Source of the DNA: Halomicrobium mukohataei DSM 12286
Lineage (GTDB): Archaea > Halobacteriota > Halobacteria > Halobacteriales > Haloarculaceae
Assembly: GCF_000023965.1 (NCBI RefSeq)
Contig: NC_013202.1
Coordinates: 2,220,001 to 2,252,000 of the forward strand
Length of the DNA: 32,000 nucleotides
Reading direction: 5' to 3'
Each line of letters starts with the position of its first letter. The first letter of the stretch is position 1. Under the pieces are notes generated by a model. The model ran no database searches. It was not told where the DNA came from and was given only the letters and a program-made list of their open reading frames with translations. The translations under genes and the position numbers were made by a program. Below, piece after piece: positions 3,073 to 32,000 of the stretch.

Positions 3073-3156
3073 TATAGTAACGATTGAAACGATTTACACA
3101 CCGATCGCACTGCCGTCGTGCGATCGGGTGTGCATTGATTTTCAATGGCTACTATA
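3073..3156. mobile_element. 84-nt imperfect palindrome (type A element, intact copy) starting on the base after the TRAM-gene TGA
   Basis: Left arm is TATAGTAACGATTGAAACGATTTACACACCGATCGCAC, loop is TGCCGTC, right arm is GTGCGATCGGGTGTGCATTGATTTTCAATGGCTACTATA. Outer arms are AT-rich and the inner stem is GC-rich. A diverged, interrupted second copy lies at 9148-9315. Confidence 0.7.
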
Positions 3157-3259: not shown

Positions 3260-4222
3260 TTACTCGTCGGCCGCGCCTTCGACTTCTTCCATGATCTCCT
3301 CGGCGTCGACGTCGGCGTCCTCGAGCGCTTCCTCGATGTCAGCGCCGCCGGCACCGCCCATGCCGCCCATCATGCCGGGCATGCCCATGCCGCCACCGCC
3401 GAGCTCTTCCTGGACGATGATGCGGTCGATGTCGAGCAGCTGGGTGAGCTGCTGGGCGATCTGCTGTTTGCCCATCATCCACTGCTGGTTCATCGTCAGC
3501 TGGGGCGTCGCCTCGATGTAGAGCGTGTCCTTCTCGACCTCGACGGTCTCGGTCTCGGGTTCGGCGTCCTCGTCGTCCTCGTCGGACTCGACGAGCTGCT
3601 CTTCCTCGACGGTGTCGGTCTCGAACCACACGTCGAGCTCCATGTCGAGCATCATCGAGAGGATGCCCTGGGCCTGCTCTTCGCGGTCCTCGACCTCGCT
3701 GAGGACCTCGTAGTCGTACTCGATGTCCTCGCCGGCCAGCGGGTGGTTGAAGTCGACGCGTGCGCGGCCGCCGATGATCGTCTCGACGTGGCCGTGCTCG
3801 CCGTCGACGTCGACGTGTGCACCGGGGTAGCGGTCGTCTTCCGGGATCTTGTCGGCCGCGACGGTTCGGACCTCGCTCTCGTCGTACTCGCCGAAGGCCT
3901 CGGCCGCGGGGACGGTGACGGTGCCGGAGTGTCCGACTTCCTCACCGTACACGTCCTCTTCGACGGCCTCGAACAGGTGGCCCTGGCCGAGCACGATCGT
4001 TCGCGGTGCGAACTCCTGGTCCTCGCCGACGCCTTCCTCTTCTGCGACTTCCGGGTCCGTCGTGTCGACGAGGTCGCCGCCCTCGACGGTGCGTGCGGTG
4101 TAGGCCATCTCGACGAAGTCGCCCGCTTCGAAGCCCTGGGCTTCCTCTTCATCGGCCGCTGATTCTTCTGCGTCCTGCTCTTCGAGTTCTTCTTCCGCGT
4201 CGGCCTCGGATTCGTTGCTCAT
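3260..4222 (-). CDS. long-type FKBP peptidyl-prolyl cis-trans isomerase with acidic linkers and a Gly/Met-rich C-terminal tract
   Basis: GDFVEMAYTARTVEGGDLVDTT..., GQGHLFEAVEEDVYG and RVDFNHPLAGEDIEYDYEVL are typical FKBP/SlyD motifs. The C-terminal GGGGMGMPGMMGGMGGAGG tract is seen directly. Confidence 0.9.
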   Translation of the reverse strand: MSNESEADAEEELEEQDAEESAADEEEAQGFEAGDFVEMAYTARTVEGGDLVDTTDPEVAEEEGVGEDQEFAPRTIVLGQGHLFEAVEEDVYGEEVGHSGTVTVPAAEAFGEYDESEVRTVAADKIPEDDRYPGAHVDVDGEHGHVETIIGGRARVDFNHPLAGEDIEYDYEVLSEVEDREEQAQGILSMMLDMELDVWFETDTVEEEQLVESDEDDEDAEPETETVEVEKDTLYIEATPQLTMNQQWMMGKQQIAQQLTQLLDIDRIIVQEELGGGGMGMPGMMGGMGGAGGADIEEALEDADVDAEEIMEEVEGAADE

Positions 4223-4354
4223 ACCCTATCGGTCTGGCGTTGCACTCTTAAGAACAACGTTTCGGCTGCGTGACCTGGGCGGATGGAGCCAGATATCGCA
4301 CACACTCTCGTGGTTCTCGAATGCGTTTTATCCCCTGGCGGTCAGTTGCGGGGT

Positions 4355-9147: not shown

Positions 9148-9315
9148 ACTGTCGCGGCCATCGAACGTCGATGCAGACCCGACCGCACGACGGCAGTGCG
9201 ATCGGTGTGTGAATCCGTTCATACGGAACGTTGTAGTTGCTTACCGGTGAGCGTCGCCACGGGGTAGACGCTCACCGGTAAATTCCTACAACCGTCCGTA
9301 TCAATCGCTACTGTA
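9148..9315. mobile_element. type A palindromic element, second copy, inverted relative to 3073-3156, diverged and interrupted by the type B element
   Basis: 9184-9210 is the exact reverse complement of 3096-3122 (27 nt). 9171-9210 versus 3096-3135 matches at 38/40. Weaker similarity continues to about 9148, and across the insertion to 9304-9315. Confidence 0.6.
9219..9303. mobile_element. type B palindromic element, copy 1 (79-nt palindrome 9222-9300 flanked by TCA...TCA, which is TGA on the cysK strand)
   Basis: TCA TACGGAACGTTGTAGTTGCTTACCGGTGAGCGTC GCCACGGGGTA GACGCTCACCGGTAAATTCCTACAACCGTCCGTA TCA. The right-hand TCA (9301-9303) is the cysK stop codon. Confidence 0.75.
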
Positions 9316-10227
9316 CTCGTCGAACATCCCCGTCGACATGTAGCGCTCGCCGCTGTCCCAGTAGACGGTCACGACGAGCGGGTCCGCGACGCCCTCGTCG
9401 AGCAACTCGGCGGCCTTCTCTCTGGCGGCGAGGTTCGACGCCCCGGAGGACTGGCCCACGAGGATCCCCTCCTCGCGCGCCAGCCGTCGGCACTCGGCTT
9501 CGGCGTCGGCGAGTTCGACCGTCGTCACCGAATCGAGCAGCTCCACGTCGAGGTTCGGGCTGACGAAGCCCGGCCCCATCCCCTGGAAGCTGTCCTCGCC
9601 GGTCCCGGGCTCCTGGCCCGAGAGGACGGCGTTGTCGGCCGGCTCGACGCCGACGATGTCCACGTCCGGGAACGCCTCGCGGAGCCGCCGGCCGACGCCG
9701 GTGACGGTCCCGCCCGTGCCGATGCCGGCGACGAACGCGTCGATGGTCCGGTCGCCGACCTGCTCGACGATCTCCGGCCCCGTCGTCTCGTAGTGTGCCC
9801 GGGGGTTGGCCTCGTTCTCGAACTGCCGGAGCTGGACGTACCCCTCTTCGGCTTCGAGTTCGTCGGCACGGTCCTTCGCTGCGGAGATGTCGCCGTCGAC
9901 GAGTTCGATCTCCGCGCCGTAGGCTGCCATTATCTGGCGGCGCTCGGGCGACTTCGAGCCCGGCATCACGAGGCGCACGTCGTACCCCTTGGCCGCGCCG
10001 GCCATCGCGAGCCCGATCCCCGTGTTGCCACTCGTCGGCTCGACGAGCGCGTCGCCCTCGGTCAGCTCGCCGGCCTCCTCGGCGGCCTCGATCATGAACC
10101 GCGCCGGTCGGTCCTTCGCGGAACCGCCGGGGTTGAACGACTCGACCTTGGCTGCGACCGTCGCTCCCTCGGGAGCCGCGACCGAGACGAGCGGCGACCC
10201 CAGCGTCTCCAGGATTGTCTCGTTCAT
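9301..10227 (-). CDS. cysK: cysteine synthase A (O-acetylserine sulfhydrylase), PLP-dependent
   Basis: SFNPGGSAKDR (PLP lysine), TSGNTGIGLA, GIGTGGT and GERYMSTGMF motifs. 308 aa. Confidence 0.93.
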   Translation of the reverse strand: MNETILETLGSPLVSVAAPEGATVAAKVESFNPGGSAKDRPARFMIEAAEEAGELTEGDALVEPTSGNTGIGLAMAGAAKGYDVRLVMPGSKSPERRQIMAAYGAEIELVDGDISAAKDRADELEAEEGYVQLRQFENEANPRAHYETTGPEIVEQVGDRTIDAFVAGIGTGGTVTGVGRRLREAFPDVDIVGVEPADNAVLSGQEPGTGEDSFQGMGPGFVSPNLDVELLDSVTTVELADAEAECRRLAREEGILVGQSSGASNLAAREKAAELLDEGVADPLVVTVYWDSGERYMSTGMFDEYSSD

Positions 10228-10250
10228 TACCGCCCTCTTGACGGTCCCCG

Positions 10251-10258
10251 GTTAAAAC
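10251..10258 (-). promoter_or_regulatory. TATA-like box for cysK (GTTTTAAC on the minus strand), 24-31 nt upstream of the ATG; implies a leaderless mRNA
   Basis: An AT-rich octamer in otherwise GC-rich spacer, at the canonical archaeal distance. Confidence 0.4.
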
Positions 10259-10299
10259 CCTCCCCGTCACCAGCATGGCGTGCCGTTACCGGTGACGAC

Positions 10300-10384
10300 T
10301 GATACGGATTATTGTAGCGATTTACCGGTGATCGTCTACTCCGTGGCGACGATCACCGGTAAGCAACTACAATAAACCGTATGA
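10300..10384. mobile_element. type B palindromic element, copy 2 (79-nt palindrome 10303-10381 flanked by TGA...TGA), inverted relative to copy 1
   Basis: TGA TACGGATTATTGTAGCGATTTACCGGTGATCGTC TACTCCGTGGC GACGATCACCGGTAAGCAACTACAATAAACCGTA TGA. Its reverse complement matches 9219-9303 at 73/85 positions. Confidence 0.75.
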
Positions 10385-10426: not shown

Positions 10427-10810
10427 ATGCCACTGACAACGATGGAACCCAACCCCGTCTGGTCGGAGGGTGCCTACGAGGACACCGTCGACGTGCTGGC
10501 CGAGCACCGCGACGAACTGGTCTACAAGGTCTGGGGCGGCGACTGGTGCAAGGACTGCCGCTCGCAACTGCCCGACTTCGGCGCGGCGCTAGACGCCGCC
10601 GAGGTCCCCGAAGAGAACGTCGTCCACCACGAGACCGAGAAGGAAGACGACGGCTCGAAGACCGGCCCGGGCGTCGAGGAGTACGGGATCGAGTACATCC
10701 CGACCGTGGTGGTCGAACGCGACGGCGAGGAGATCGCACGCTTCGTCGAGGACGCCGACGTTCCGATTGCCGTCTCTCTCGCCGAGGAGATCCAGGCGGC
10801 ACTCGACTGA
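10427..10810 (+). CDS. thioredoxin-fold protein (CxxC = WCKDC)
   Basis: VWGGDWCKDCRSQLP and IEYIPTVVV fit a thioredoxin-like fold. An alternative start is M6 at 10442. Confidence 0.8.
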   Translation: MPLTTMEPNPVWSEGAYEDTVDVLAEHRDELVYKVWGGDWCKDCRSQLPDFGAALDAAEVPEENVVHHETEKEDDGSKTGPGVEEYGIEYIPTVVVERDGEEIARFVEDADVPIAVSLAEEIQAALD

Positions 10811-24850: not shown

Positions 24851-24931
24851 CAGCTCGTACTGCCCCGTCTCCGTATCGTTCCACGGGACGGAGACGCTCG
24901 CCGGTACGTTCCGACGACCGTCCGTATACTC
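24851..24931. repeat. decayed type B element relic
   Basis: 24881-24929 aligns to 9257-9303 with 39 identities and one 2-nt gap, including ACCGTCCGTAT, CCGGTA and GACGCTC. A residual 9-bp hairpin remains, CGTCTCCGT / ACGGAGACG. Confidence 0.5.
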
Positions 24932-24962: not shown

Positions 24963-26372
24963 TCAGGCCGGACGGATCCGGACCAGTCGATCGTCGTCGT
25001 CGCGCGGGAACGGTCCGTTCGCGCGGCCGTCACGGTTCGACGTGATCGCGTAGAGATCGCCCTCCGGTCCCTGTTCGACGTGGCGGACACGGCCGAGTTC
25101 CTCGCTCAGGAGCCCGCTGGTCCCGGCCCGGTAGTCGGCGTCGTACCACGAGGCATCGTGGCGTCGCTCGTGTCCGTCTGCGGGCTGTGGCCCGTCGGCG
25201 GGCGTGATCGTCGCGGCCGTGACTCGCTGACTGATCAGGCCACCGAACACGAACCGGTTCCGCAGGCTCGGAACGCTCTCGCCGGTGTAGAACACGCCCC
25301 CGGCCGGGGCCCACGACGAGGCGTCCGCGACCGGCGACTGGAACTCGGTCTCTGGGTATCGCTCGTGATCGCCGCTGTTCCGGACCACTGGCCAGCCGTA
25401 GTCGACGCCCGGCCTGAGGACGTTGAGCTCGTCTCCAGCGCCGGGTCCGTGCTCGGTGATTATCGGGGTCCCGTCCGGGAGCCAGTCGATACCCTGGGGG
25501 TTCCGGTGGCCGTAGGTGAACACGCGCGGGTCGGCGTCCGACGTGCTGTCGGGGTTGTCCGGTGGTGGCGACCCGTCGGGCCGAACGCGGAGGACTTTCC
25601 CGGCCAGGGAGGCGGGGTCTCTCGTCTGTTCCGTGTGTTCGAGTCCGGGATCGGCGTCGCCGGTCGTAATCCACAGGTAGTCGGCCGGTCCGAACGCGAT
25701 CCGACCGCCGTTGTGGTAGGTGTCGGCCGGGATCTCGTCGACGACCGGGACGACAGTCTCGTCGGGAGCTGGTGCGCTGGCGTCGAAGGCGACCACCCGA
25801 TTGCGCTTCCCCTCGCTCGTCTCGGCCGTGTAGTAGACGTAGACGACCGGCGGATCCGGATACGACGGGTGGGCGGCGACGCCGAGCAGACCGCCTTCTC
25901 CGCCGGTGAGCCGCCACCGACTCTCGTCGGAGCCCGCCTCGATCGCGGCTGCGTCGATGATGTCGGACGGCTCGGCGACCGTCCGCAGCGTCCCGCTGTC
26001 GAACTCGGTGATACGGCCGGTCCGCTCTGTCACGAACAGCGTGTCTTCGCCCGCAAACGAGAGGTCCCAGGGCACTTCGAGCCCGGTCGCCAGCACCTCC
26101 GCGGTGTACTCCTCTCGGGGCGAGTCGCTCGGCGGTTCCCAGTCGGGATCGTAGCGGTCCCACTCTGTGAGCTCGTGGGTCACCGAGAGATCGTATCCGA
26201 GCGCCGCGGGGCCGGCCGGCGTGTCGGTACCGCCCTCGCTCGTCGTTCGAGTGCCGTCGTTCGGATTCGATCCCGTACAACCGGCGACGAGGCCGACGCC
26301 GACGATCGCACCGCTCCGTCGGAGAAACCGACGGCGACTGATCCCCCTGCTGCTGGCTCGATTGCCACCCAT
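24963..26372 (-). CDS. PQQ-dependent sugar (glucose/sorbosone) dehydrogenase, Tat lipoprotein
   Basis: SRRRFLRRSGAIVGVGLVAGC signal. YHNGGRIAFGP, FTYGHRNPQG and DELNVLRPGVDYGWP are beta-propeller motifs. Confidence 0.9.
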   Translation of the reverse strand: MGGNRASSRGISRRRFLRRSGAIVGVGLVAGCTGSNPNDGTRTTSEGGTDTPAGPAALGYDLSVTHELTEWDRYDPDWEPPSDSPREEYTAEVLATGLEVPWDLSFAGEDTLFVTERTGRITEFDSGTLRTVAEPSDIIDAAAIEAGSDESRWRLTGGEGGLLGVAAHPSYPDPPVVYVYYTAETSEGKRNRVVAFDASAPAPDETVVPVVDEIPADTYHNGGRIAFGPADYLWITTGDADPGLEHTEQTRDPASLAGKVLRVRPDGSPPPDNPDSTSDADPRVFTYGHRNPQGIDWLPDGTPIITEHGPGAGDELNVLRPGVDYGWPVVRNSGDHERYPETEFQSPVADASSWAPAGGVFYTGESVPSLRNRFVFGGLISQRVTAATITPADGPQPADGHERRHDASWYDADYRAGTSGLLSEELGRVRHVEQGPEGDLYAITSNRDGRANGPFPRDDDDRLVRIRPA

Positions 26373-31608: not shown

Positions 31609-32000
31609 TCAGAGCACGCCGTCGCCGGTCTCGGATCCACCATCGAGGATGCCGTCGTCGGTCTCGGTCGGCGTTGCCGTTGGCGTCGTCTCCGTCCCGG
31701 TGACGGTCGTTTCTGTTACCTCCGAGCCCGTCGGATCGAGTCCGTCGTCGGAGTCTGTTTCTGTGGTTCTGCTATCTGCTCCTGTCGTGGCGCTGTCGTT
31801 CGACGCTGACGCCGGCGTCGCCTCGTCAGTCGTCGCACTCTCGTTTGTCGCCTTGGTGCCGAAGATGTCGGTCTCGATCCGCTGCTCGTAATCGATCGCG
31901 TCGAGATCGATCCTGAACTGTTCCTCGCCCACCTCGACGAGCAGATAGAAGTCGATCCGTAGATCCGTGACCTGGTCCCGATCGATGTGGCTGACCCACC
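31609..32000 (-). CDS. hypothetical protein, C-terminal part, with a Thr/Asp/Glu-rich tail; continues beyond the window end
   Basis: The track ORF starts at a GTG at 31932, but the frame stays open to 32000 (...WVSHIDRDQVTDLRIDFYLLVEVGEEQFRIDLDAIDYEQRIETDIFG...). I therefore treat it as partial. Confidence 0.55.
   Translation of the reverse strand, partial: WVSHIDRDQVTDLRIDFYLLVEVGEEQFRIDLDAIDYEQRIETDIFGTKATNESATTDEATPASASNDSATTGADSRTTETDSDDGLDPTGSEVTETTVTGTETTPTATPTETDDGILDGGSETGDGVL

Follow-up and report, generated by a model that had tools for sequence, protein, structure and literature searches.

Two hairpin units flanking cysK in Halomicrobium mukohataei are very probably independent insertions of a 79-bp non-autonomous transposon

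Short non-coding elements with inverted ends and fixed-length duplications are well represented among prokaryotic MITEs, such as the Correia elements of Neisseria, MITEHsal, HqIRS and the Tourist-like elements with TNA/TWA targets. They occur as many dispersed, mostly intergenic copies, and their presence or absence differs between close strains. The 79-bp family described here resembles them in all of these features, but its length is far below the 400–520 bp or so given for haloarchaeal MITEs in two studies (PMC7002104, PMC3119063). Closer in size is SMR-A of Haloquadratum, whose roughly 110 bp end in prominent inverted repeats and whose transposase is unknown; this element makes no target duplication and prefers insertion into PATEs and IS605-type elements (PMC3119063). 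The 79-bp family is like SMR-A in its inverted ends and its frequency in a haloarchaeon, and differs from it by a 3-bp duplication and a TGA target. Also comparable are the REP/REPIN sequences, in which two inverted units form a hairpin of about 80 nt. They lie at the 3′ ends of genes, carry a GTAG-like motif, are present in hundreds of copies and are targeted by other insertion sequences. However, REPINs create no target duplications and rely on a Y1 gene present in single copy, whereas the 79-bp family makes 3-bp duplications and no Y1 gene was seen in the surroundings of its copies. RAYTs have been described in bacteria and are not known from archaea.

The locus studied here lies in a 32,000-nucleotide stretch of the H. 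mukohataei DSM 12286 genome (the window). It contains cysK (9301..10227, minus strand), encoding a PLP-dependent cysteine synthase of 308 aa (Pfam PALP, E 3.5e-69). Two 79-bp near-palindromes were found on either side of this gene in opposite orientation, copy A at 9222..9300 (plus strand) and copy B at 10303..10381 (minus strand). The inverted 85-nt pair reported in the initial annotation was reproduced: the reverse complement of 10300–10384 is identical to 9219–9303 at 73/85 positions (67/79 inside the element proper), and a repeat search of the window scored the pair as 89-nt arms with 85% complementarity. Each unit is also the near-perfect palindrome that had been described, with arms of 38 nt, 82–84% complementary, and an 11-nt spacer. 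The element boundaries were refined to TACGG...CCGTA, and the outer trinucleotides are target-site duplications that lie outside the element. The core motif and the terminal motif each had four exact matches in the window, one per arm of both units. With two mismatches allowed, 6–7 matches were obtained, against about 0.3–0.4 expected by chance, and the observed count was reached by 0/100 shuffles.

Copy A, of subfamily S2, has the inner stem GAGCGTC/GACGCTC and the loop GCCACGGGGTA. Based on flank comparison, it is framed by TCA at 9219..9221 and TCA at 9301..9303, the latter being, on the minus strand, the TGA stop codon of cysK, which copy A directly adjoins. Copy B, of subfamily S1, has the inner stem GATCGTC/GACGATC, and its orientation opposite to that of copy A was called from the asymmetric internal loop. 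It is framed by TGA at 10300..10302 and at 10382..10384; counted with this duplication, it begins at a distance of 73 nt from the cysK ATG, on its upstream side, and 43 nt separate its end from the start codon (ATG, 10427) of the next ORF. In H. katesii, cysK occupies the same chromosomal place with the same two-element arrangement (L050). The ortholog of copy A (L050:1066) shares with it the private arm variant AACG and has its loop inverted, and the ortholog of copy B is L050:2147. A degenerate half-copy, consisting of one arm, was found in the window at 24893..24927 (minus strand) and has an orthologous remnant in H. katesii (L033:651).

The exact inner-stem pattern matched 67 loci, about 60 of them in H. 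katesii and five in the MAG QS_4_62_28, and at least 77 full copies were present in about 0.5 Mb of sampled H. katesii loci. Hypersaline metagenomes contained 93 distinct divergent copies of 77–84 bp, and divergent copies were also found on plasmids of Natrialbaceae, Halomontanus, Halostella and Salinibaculum; the viral contigs searched held no copies of this element (hereafter type 1). The element comprises only a pair of inverted arms, 34 nt each, around a loop of 11 nt, lacks coding capacity, and has termini, TACGG/CCGTA, that are invariant across the family. Two S1 master sequences were represented by 14 and 15 identical copies, and such bursts point to recent amplification. A search of the literature on haloarchaeal MITEs, stop-codon targets and IS5 subgroups returned no description of the 79-bp family.

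A perfect 3-bp duplication, TGA/TGA or TCA/TCA, was found in 58/67 Halomicrobium copies and in 85/93 metagenome copies, while TTA occurs rarely as the duplicated triplet. Four sites that are occupied in H. katesii are empty in the window, each with a clean single TNA. The first, at 10808..10810 (plus strand), is the TGA stop of ORF 10427–10810, where H. katesii has a type-1 MITE with TGA/TGA (L050:2652). The second and the third are TCA triplets at 24963..24965 and 31609..31611, corresponding to the H. katesii copies L033:688 and L033:7416, respectively; in H. katesii the target of the former is the stop codon that ends a coding-like ORF of 493 codons. The fourth is TTA at 3260..3262 (minus strand), which reads as the TAA end of a putative minus-strand ORF 3260–4225; at this site H. 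katesii carries a copy with TTA/TTA (L018:2923). The four insertions appear to be specific to H. katesii, while copies A and B at cysK predate the split from that species. The four H. katesii-specific insertions suggest that the family was active recently. Four hallmarks of a MITE were found in this family: a short non-coding body, terminal inverted repeats, a fixed 3-bp duplication and multiple copies with insertion polymorphism and empty sites.

The preferred target, GAC-TGA-GAC, was the same at stop and non-stop insertions, unlike ordinary stop-codon contexts, and this preference recurred in the metagenome copies. Orientation relative to the target or to the gene was random in the H. katesii table (33 vs 32), which fits a staggered cut rather than site-specific recombination on an asymmetric core. 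Of the H. katesii copies, 34/65 coincided exactly with a stop codon, or 34/58 when only tolerated sites (stop or intergenic) were counted, against a null share of 11% for all such TGA sites and 23% for those in the CTGAG context. The corresponding counts were 31/61 for metagenome copies and 5/7 for the RefSeq-annotated H. mukohataei JP60 plasmid, where the copies lay exactly on CDS stop codons. The stop codon is rebuilt by the 3-bp duplication. A special sensing of stop codons was considered and proved unneeded, since the target-weighted null of 30–64% encompasses the observed 59%. Target preference and selection largely reproduce the stop-codon enrichment.

Based on the above results, we consider it very probable that the two units flanking cysK arose by separate insertion events of a non-autonomous DNA transposon (MITE), and suggest the following course of events. 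The element would insert at T-S-A, preferably within GAC-TGA-GAC, and duplicate those 3 bp. Such a duplication is what remains after a staggered cut of 3 bp, here made by a transposase acting in trans, and it would point to an enzyme of the DDE type. In this GC-rich genome GAC-TGA is very common as a gene end, and insertions inside genes would be purged, so that about half of the surviving copies would come to lie on stop codons. Copy A (S2) would have struck the TGA ending cysK, and copy B (S1) a TGA within the region of the divergent promoters.

The substitutions between the two copies had been described as coupled across the stem. At the inner stem this coupling, GAGCGTC/GACGCTC versus GATCGTC/GACGATC, is present and compensated; at the outer stem, AACG/CCGT versus TTTA/TAAT, it is partly compensatory, but only 2/4 and 3/4 positions pair, respectively. 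The coupling extends to the whole family, because covariation across 81 diverse copies exceeded both shuffled and slid controls. Among these copies, 84.7% of cells were paired vs 75.9% in shuffles (0/500 shuffles), double-sided changes numbered 293 vs 138 expected, and slid controls reached only 23–46% pairing. Arm positions 1–15 and 20–34 pair, a conserved 4×4 internal loop never pairs, and a GTAG/GTAA motif is conserved in each arm. The units folded at −48 to −55 kcal/mol as RNA (z −7.6 to −10.3, 0/200 shuffles as good) and at −27 and −28 kcal/mol as DNA (z −7.7 and −8.3).

For an inserted transposon, the paired substitutions would reflect a symmetry constraint on DNA that is equal on both strands. 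It is possible that like recognition is required of both arms, or that recombination or template switching within the element keeps the arms alike. The 11-nt loop is inverted in place between copy A of the window and its H. katesii ortholog, which is direct evidence for recombination or template switching within the element, although either cause may underlie the paired substitutions. A similar behaviour is known from small hairpin-associated inversions in non-coding plastid DNA and from the flip/flop of parvoviral terminal hairpins, in which a short loop between perfect inverted arms occurs both ways and flips in situ. In contrast to those cases, it is the central part of a transposable element that flips here, presumably by arm–arm recombination or template switching. 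The in situ inversion also marks palindrome dynamics in an archaeal chromosome.

The internal loop that never pairs is not predicted by simple recognition of terminal repeats, and a folded-DNA intermediate or a host function of the element is therefore possible. There is also a speculative alternative, which we think unlikely: the element would be a hairpin transposon of Halobacteria specialised for safe sites, whose GAC-TGA-GAC target evolved to home on stop codons that the 3-bp duplication rebuilds, whose whole body, with its invariant unpaired internal loop and a tip that flips back and forth, served as a folded or cruciform DNA substrate, and whose enzyme might be a single-copy transposase with no classical IS parent.

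Much less probable is that the hairpins are functional RNAs, acting as 3′-UTR stabilisers, terminators or regulatory RNAs of the cysK region, with the covariation arising from an RNA fold. Such a role would agree with the very stable RNA hairpins, with the family-wide stem covariation and with the position of about half of the copies directly 3′ of stop codons, from which they would enter 3′ UTRs. However, an Rfam search of the units gave no match at gathering score, no T-run follows the hairpin at cysK, and the units show the properties of neither a curated structured RNA nor an intrinsic terminator. The random gene-relative orientation also speaks against an RNA, as do the duplications, empty sites and bursts of identical copies, which show spread as mobile DNA. 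Furthermore, G·U and A·C mismatches were about equally frequent in the sense orientation (62 vs 64). This makes the stem constraint strand-symmetric, which gives no support to an mRNA hairpin and fits symmetry at the DNA level. Of the earlier proposal that selection or conversion acts on the folded form, conversion and an ssDNA/cruciform substrate accordingly fit better than an RNA hairpin. Thus, paired substitutions in a hairpin need not mean a functional RNA.

We likewise give little credence to the possibility that the units are REPIN-like hairpins moved as folded ssDNA by an HUH/Y1 enzyme of the RAYT or IS200/IS605 type instead of a DDE enzyme. The entire element is indeed one long imperfect hairpin with a conserved unpaired internal loop and GTAG/GTAA in each arm, it shares with REPs a location at the 3′ ends of genes, its flipping loop suggests hairpin or cruciform dynamics, and a DDE parent was not found in the sampled loci. 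Nevertheless, REP/REPIN and IS200/IS605 elements insert without duplicating their target, whereas the 3-bp duplication is nearly universal here and the empty sites retain a single target copy. In addition, single-strand transposition is strand-specific, whereas the orientation of our elements is uncoupled from the asymmetric target, so that neither the lack of duplication nor the strand-specific insertion of the REP/REPIN-RAYT systems was observed.

The suggestion that cysK and its inverted copies form a composite mobile cassette moving as a unit, prompted by a single gene bracketed by two related inverted elements, can practically be discarded, given that each copy has its own duplication (TCA/TCA; TGA/TGA) with differing outer flanks, that the copies belong to different subfamilies and encode no transposase, that the chromosomal position of cysK is the same in H. 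katesii, and that copies of the element are found at the ends of dozens of unrelated genes and bracket other genes as well (acs in L186; L013, L028 and L032) because consecutive gene ends and stop codons are targets, a pattern that does not describe a composite transposon. Inversion or deletion by recombination between the copies, proposed in the same context, is possible in principle but was not seen, the H. katesii arrangement being identical. The units at cysK are ordinary mobile DNA, neither a cysK cassette nor a regulatory RNA.

The family also has traits that set it apart from known MITEs: its 79-bp body forms a single hairpin with covariation across subfamilies, it has the defined target GAC-TGA-GAC with half of the copies on stop codons, and it has no known parent IS. 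The sampled loci, about 1.4 Mb in total, yielded no autonomous element whose ends match the TACGG termini, and the full annotation of the 222-kb H. mukohataei JP60 plasmid contained no parent, its transposition genes being IS1595 and TnpB only. The IS5 superfamily (IS1031/ISL2, PIF/Harbinger) produces a 3-bp TNA duplication in a C-TNA-G context (ISfinder) and offers a lead, since the 79-bp family matches both the 3-bp duplication and the C-TSA-G context. The ends of the IS5 family are GA/GG, from which the TACGG ends differ, and no IS5-type transposase gene with TACGG ends was found in the sampled loci or on the JP60 plasmid.

An ISNpe28-like IS of the IS1595 family in the metagenome locus L193, with apparent TACGG ends and a TCA duplication, was considered as a parent and rejected. 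A comparison with the Natrinema pellirubrum and Halobaculum copies placed the true ends of ISNpe28 and its relatives at CGCTCATC...GATGAGCG with 8-bp duplications (CTAAGGAA in L194 and TACATCTC in L195). The IS in L193 had inserted inside a MITE, with the duplication ATAACTAA. Both the ends and the duplication length thus differ from those of the 79-bp element. The protein P0019, an OrfA on an H. katesii scaffold, belongs to this rejected IS1595 lead. Repeated ORFs and DNA among the 67 H. katesii loci yielded an unrelated 1047-bp IS1595-family IS (L017/L055), and pairs of TACGG ends 130–4000 bp apart with equal duplications turned out to be adjacent MITEs, variants of about 160 bp, or L193. 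The solo arms at L006, L030 and L040 were rejected as IS ends and are truncations. The same comparison of repeats in H. katesii also revealed a 397-bp MITE with GAGGGTGTCATAGAAC ends.

The 3′ end of cysK has a history of its own. The protein ends in ...GERYMSTGMFDEYSSD before the stop, while the closest of 120 homologues compared stop at ...MFD or ...MFDE. Copy A was found to be inserted into the internal TGA of a degenerate palindromic MITE of a second type, whose distal part was aligned at 9148..9218 (minus strand; boundaries approximate) to an intact type-2 copy at 3073–3156, and whose proximal end at 9304..9317 (minus strand) reads TA CAGTAGCGAT. This proximal end, with the TGA at 9301–9303, encodes the cysK tail Y-S-S-D-stop. 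The last four codons of cysK and its stop thus derive from an older, different MITE family. The statement of the initial annotation that one copy forms the cysK 3′ end comes close, in that copy A adjoins the stop, which is one copy of its target duplication, but the tail codons and the stop itself come from the type-2 element. On the other side of the gene, the region upstream of cysK was moved 82 bp from the neighbouring promoter by the element.

Together, the type-1 and the second palindromic family account for many otherwise puzzling inverted repeats that occur at the ends of genes in Halomicrobium and hypersaline metagenomes. The choice of the commonest gene end as a target, combined with a duplication that rebuilds the stop, allows a high copy number at low cost in a compact genome. 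The elements also create spurious small ORFs, one example being a CDS of 66 aa on the JP60 plasmid, which overlaps a copy.

The cysK gene (9301–10227, minus strand; PALP domain) is bracketed by two units that the initial annotation had described as a pair of inverted hairpins. This description was confirmed: the reverse complement of 10300–10384 is identical to 9219–9303 at 73 of 85 positions, both units are near-perfect palindromes with an 11-nt spacer, and their RNA folds (−48 to −55 kcal/mol) were matched by none of 200 shuffled sequences. The DNA folds reach −27 and −28 kcal/mol (0/200 shuffles equal them). The core motif and the terminal motif have four exact matches apiece in the window, one in every arm of both units, and with two mismatches allowed, 6–7 matches were found at a chance expectation of about 0.3–0.4. 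The units are copies of a 79-bp element, designated type 1. Copy A (9222–9300; subfamily S2, with G-C at the inner-stem position that varies) is flanked by TCA at 9219–9221 and 9301–9303, and copy B (10303–10381; subfamily S1, T-A at that position) by TGA at 10300–10302 and 10382–10384. Since each copy has its own duplication and the outer flanks differ, cysK and its hairpins do not form the composite cassette that had been proposed. H. katesii (L050) carries both copies as well, and there the stop codon of the ORF that follows holds a third type-1 copy. Such bracketing recurs at other genes, e.g., acs in L186, because consecutive gene ends are targets.

The hairpin unit is a dispersed repeat rather than a local feature. 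A search of one genome per species gave 67 loci matching the inner stem exactly, including about 60 from Halomicrobium katesii DSM 19301, five from a Halobacteriales MAG and one chance hit; H. katesii shares 95–98% identity with the window across orthologous stretches. The 0.5 Mb sampled contained 77 full type-1 copies, all of exactly 79 bp (TACGG...CCGTA). A perfect TGA/TGA or TCA/TCA direct repeat surrounds 58 of 67 copies, and TTA/TTA surrounds one. Moreover, four sites occupied in H. katesii (3260–3262, 10808–10810, 24963–24965 and 31609–31611) are empty in the window, with a single trinucleotide copy each. Insertion therefore generates a 3-bp target-site duplication. How the arms are oriented does not depend on the orientation of the asymmetric target (TGA 19/17, TCA 15/14), which fits a staggered cut and not recombination on an asymmetric core. 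Two S1 master sequences, represented by 14 and 15 identical copies, indicate recent amplification. A degenerate single type-1 arm (24893–24927, minus strand), retained in H. katesii (L033, ~651), lies 36 nt from the empty site 24963–24965, which H. katesii has filled. On the plasmid NZ_CP039376.1, a RefSeq 66-aa "hypothetical protein" (94428–94628; L072 44428–44628) overlaps a type-1 copy and is probably an annotation artefact due to the repeat.

In structure and behaviour, the type-1 element is a MITE in all respects except the identification of a partner IS. The haloarchaeal MITEs described are several times longer (PMC7002104, PMC3119063), and the Haloquadratum SMR-A elements, unlike type 1, lack duplications (PMC3119063). 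REP/REPIN sequences are the closest functional look-alikes; however, they have no duplications, whereas type 1 has a 3-bp one. No description of the 79-bp family was found in the literature searched. Its noteworthy traits are a hairpin that covaries across the whole body, a loop that flips and a target coinciding with stop codons.

The termini (TACGG), TTGTAR and TTACCGG are conserved in the family, positions 6–9 and 27–34 differ among subfamilies yet stay paired, and a 4x4 internal loop at positions 16–19 is almost never paired. In an alignment of 81 diverse copies, pairing was observed in 84.7% of cells versus 75.9% in shuffles (0/500 shuffles), with 293 versus 138 double-sided changes and a covariation score of 0.261 versus 0.126; slid-register controls gave 23–46% pairing. 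Because the stem covaries family-wide beyond both kinds of control, the constraint on the paired form suggested by the two cysK copies is correct. Based on a one-arm pattern, at least 120 metagenome loci were collected; those listed contained 93 distinct elements of 77–84 bp, and in 85 the TGA or TCA duplication was perfect.

Selection for an mRNA hairpin is one explanation of this constraint. When every copy is turned so that its target reads TGA, G·U and A·C mismatches are equally frequent (62 vs 64), although this test is limited by the non-independence of the copies and by the fact that only about half lie behind a confirmed gene. Type 1 is also randomly oriented with respect to the gene. 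These results argue against mRNA-hairpin selection and for symmetry at the DNA level; the constraint is strand-symmetric. Part of the covariation may instead have a mechanistic origin, in recombination or template switching between the arms, and not a selective one. The S1 consensus, in a common arm orientation, has both loop orientations at nearly equal frequency. The loop of copy A reads GCCACGGGGTA in the window and TACCTCGTGGC in its H. katesii orthologue, although the private arm variant AACG is common to the two; therefore, the inversion took place in situ. It implies that the perfect inner arms (15 bp) underwent recombination or template switching, which would also maintain their complementarity. 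In H. katesii loci, when the targets are set to read TGA, the loop has the TAC..GTGGC orientation in 42 copies and the GCCAC..GTA orientation in 23, a weak bias, and the arms have no orientation bias (33 vs 32).

Using a codon-usage gene caller (coding coverage 82%), 34 of 65 insertions were placed exactly on a TGA stop. Among copies at tolerated sites only (stop codon or intergenic) the share was 34/58, compared with 11% expected from all such TGA sites and 23% from CTGAG sites (p ~1e-8 or lower). Of the seven full copies on the H. mukohataei plasmid, whose annotation is from RefSeq, 5 adjoin annotated CDS ends, as do distant copies from plasmids of Halomontanus and Natrialbaceae and 31/61 metagenome copies. 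The flanks of all sites oriented as TGA read G-A-C|TGA|G-A-C-(G)-G on and off stop codons alike, and G-A-C|TGA|G was also obtained from independent metagenome copies. This context is unlike that of uninserted stop codons (e.g., G at +1 in 65–71% of insertions vs 25%). A target-logo-weighted null predicted an on-stop share of 30–64%, so the coincidence is explained by DNA preference together with loss of intragenic insertions. The preferred sequence coincides with the most frequent gene end, in which TGA follows an Asp codon, and stop-codon sensing is not required.

A second palindromic MITE-like family, type 2 (~84–87 nt, TATAGTAAC...GCTACTATA), has flanks compatible with a TA duplication and is represented by 18 or more copies in the Halomicrobium DNA sampled. 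The window contains an intact copy (3073–3156) and, downstream of cysK, a degenerate one (9148–9218 and 9304–9317) interrupted by copy A at an internal TGA. The internal AAT-TGA-AAC of type 2 is a repeated type-1 target (window copy A, L015, L016, L059), the nesting having arisen independently in the last three loci. The CysK of the window ends in ...MFDEYSSD, and 120 close homologues end in ...MFD, ...MFDE or ...MFDD. The Y-S-S-D tail and stop codon (9301–9317, minus strand) match the type-2 terminus TA TAGTAACAAT TGA; thus, a type-2 element probably hit the TA of the original cysK stop, replaced it and lengthened the protein by four residues. In S3, a third subfamily found in Halomicrobium (L014 ~2800, L016 ~3640–3718, L059 ~4020–4101), the outer arms of type 1 are joined to a central hairpin similar to that of type 2 (GATCGCAC...GTGCGGTC), which indicates modular exchange between the families. 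Type-1 variants of ~160 bp in metagenomes (L163 536–698, L171 7177–7340) have one more palindromic module, placed between the ATTACCGG hairpin and the left terminus, and keep the 3-bp TGA duplications.

Within the sampled loci, no transposase with matching ends emerged from repeats at the ORF or DNA level, from solo arms or from end pairs lying far apart, and the H. mukohataei plasmid annotation, with IS1595 and TnpB genes only, held no candidate parent. As a lead only, some IS5-superfamily groups make a 3-bp TNA duplication within C-TNA-G. An IS1595-family element in L193 resembled a parent, having TACGG ends, a hairpin at one of them and TCA flanks, but was ruled out: its relatives, including ISNpe28, have CGCTCATC...GATGAGCG ends and 8-bp duplications, and the IS sits within a MITE, inserted at ATAACTAA. 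Beyond this IS (L193, reverse complement 1065–2097), further elements have hit the AT-rich outer arms of type-1 copies (L019 3657–5667; L049 ~1535; L056 4324–4720). These insertions, an ISNpe28-like IS1595-family IS and GAGGGTGTCATAGAAC-ended elements that include a 397-bp MITE, have 6–8-bp duplications. Against a genomic GC content of 67%, type-1 MITEs serve as AT-rich landing pads.

In transposase genes of the ISNpe28-like type, an A7 tract separates the zinc-ribbon part from the DDE part (L193, reverse complement ~1602–1608); in L194 and L195 it is located ~440–500 nt into the gene. Many database entries are 169-aa N-terminal ORFs and others are fused 294-aa proteins. Together these observations suggest that this IS1595 subgroup has a conserved site of −1 frameshifting or slippage. 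Another IS1595-family IS, 1047 bp long and 99.6% identical at two places (L017 1498–2544 and L055 2997–4043), has no relation to the hairpin elements; its ends are CGCTCTTACG...AGCGAAAA, and the 7-bp repeat flanking it was read as GGCAGCA.
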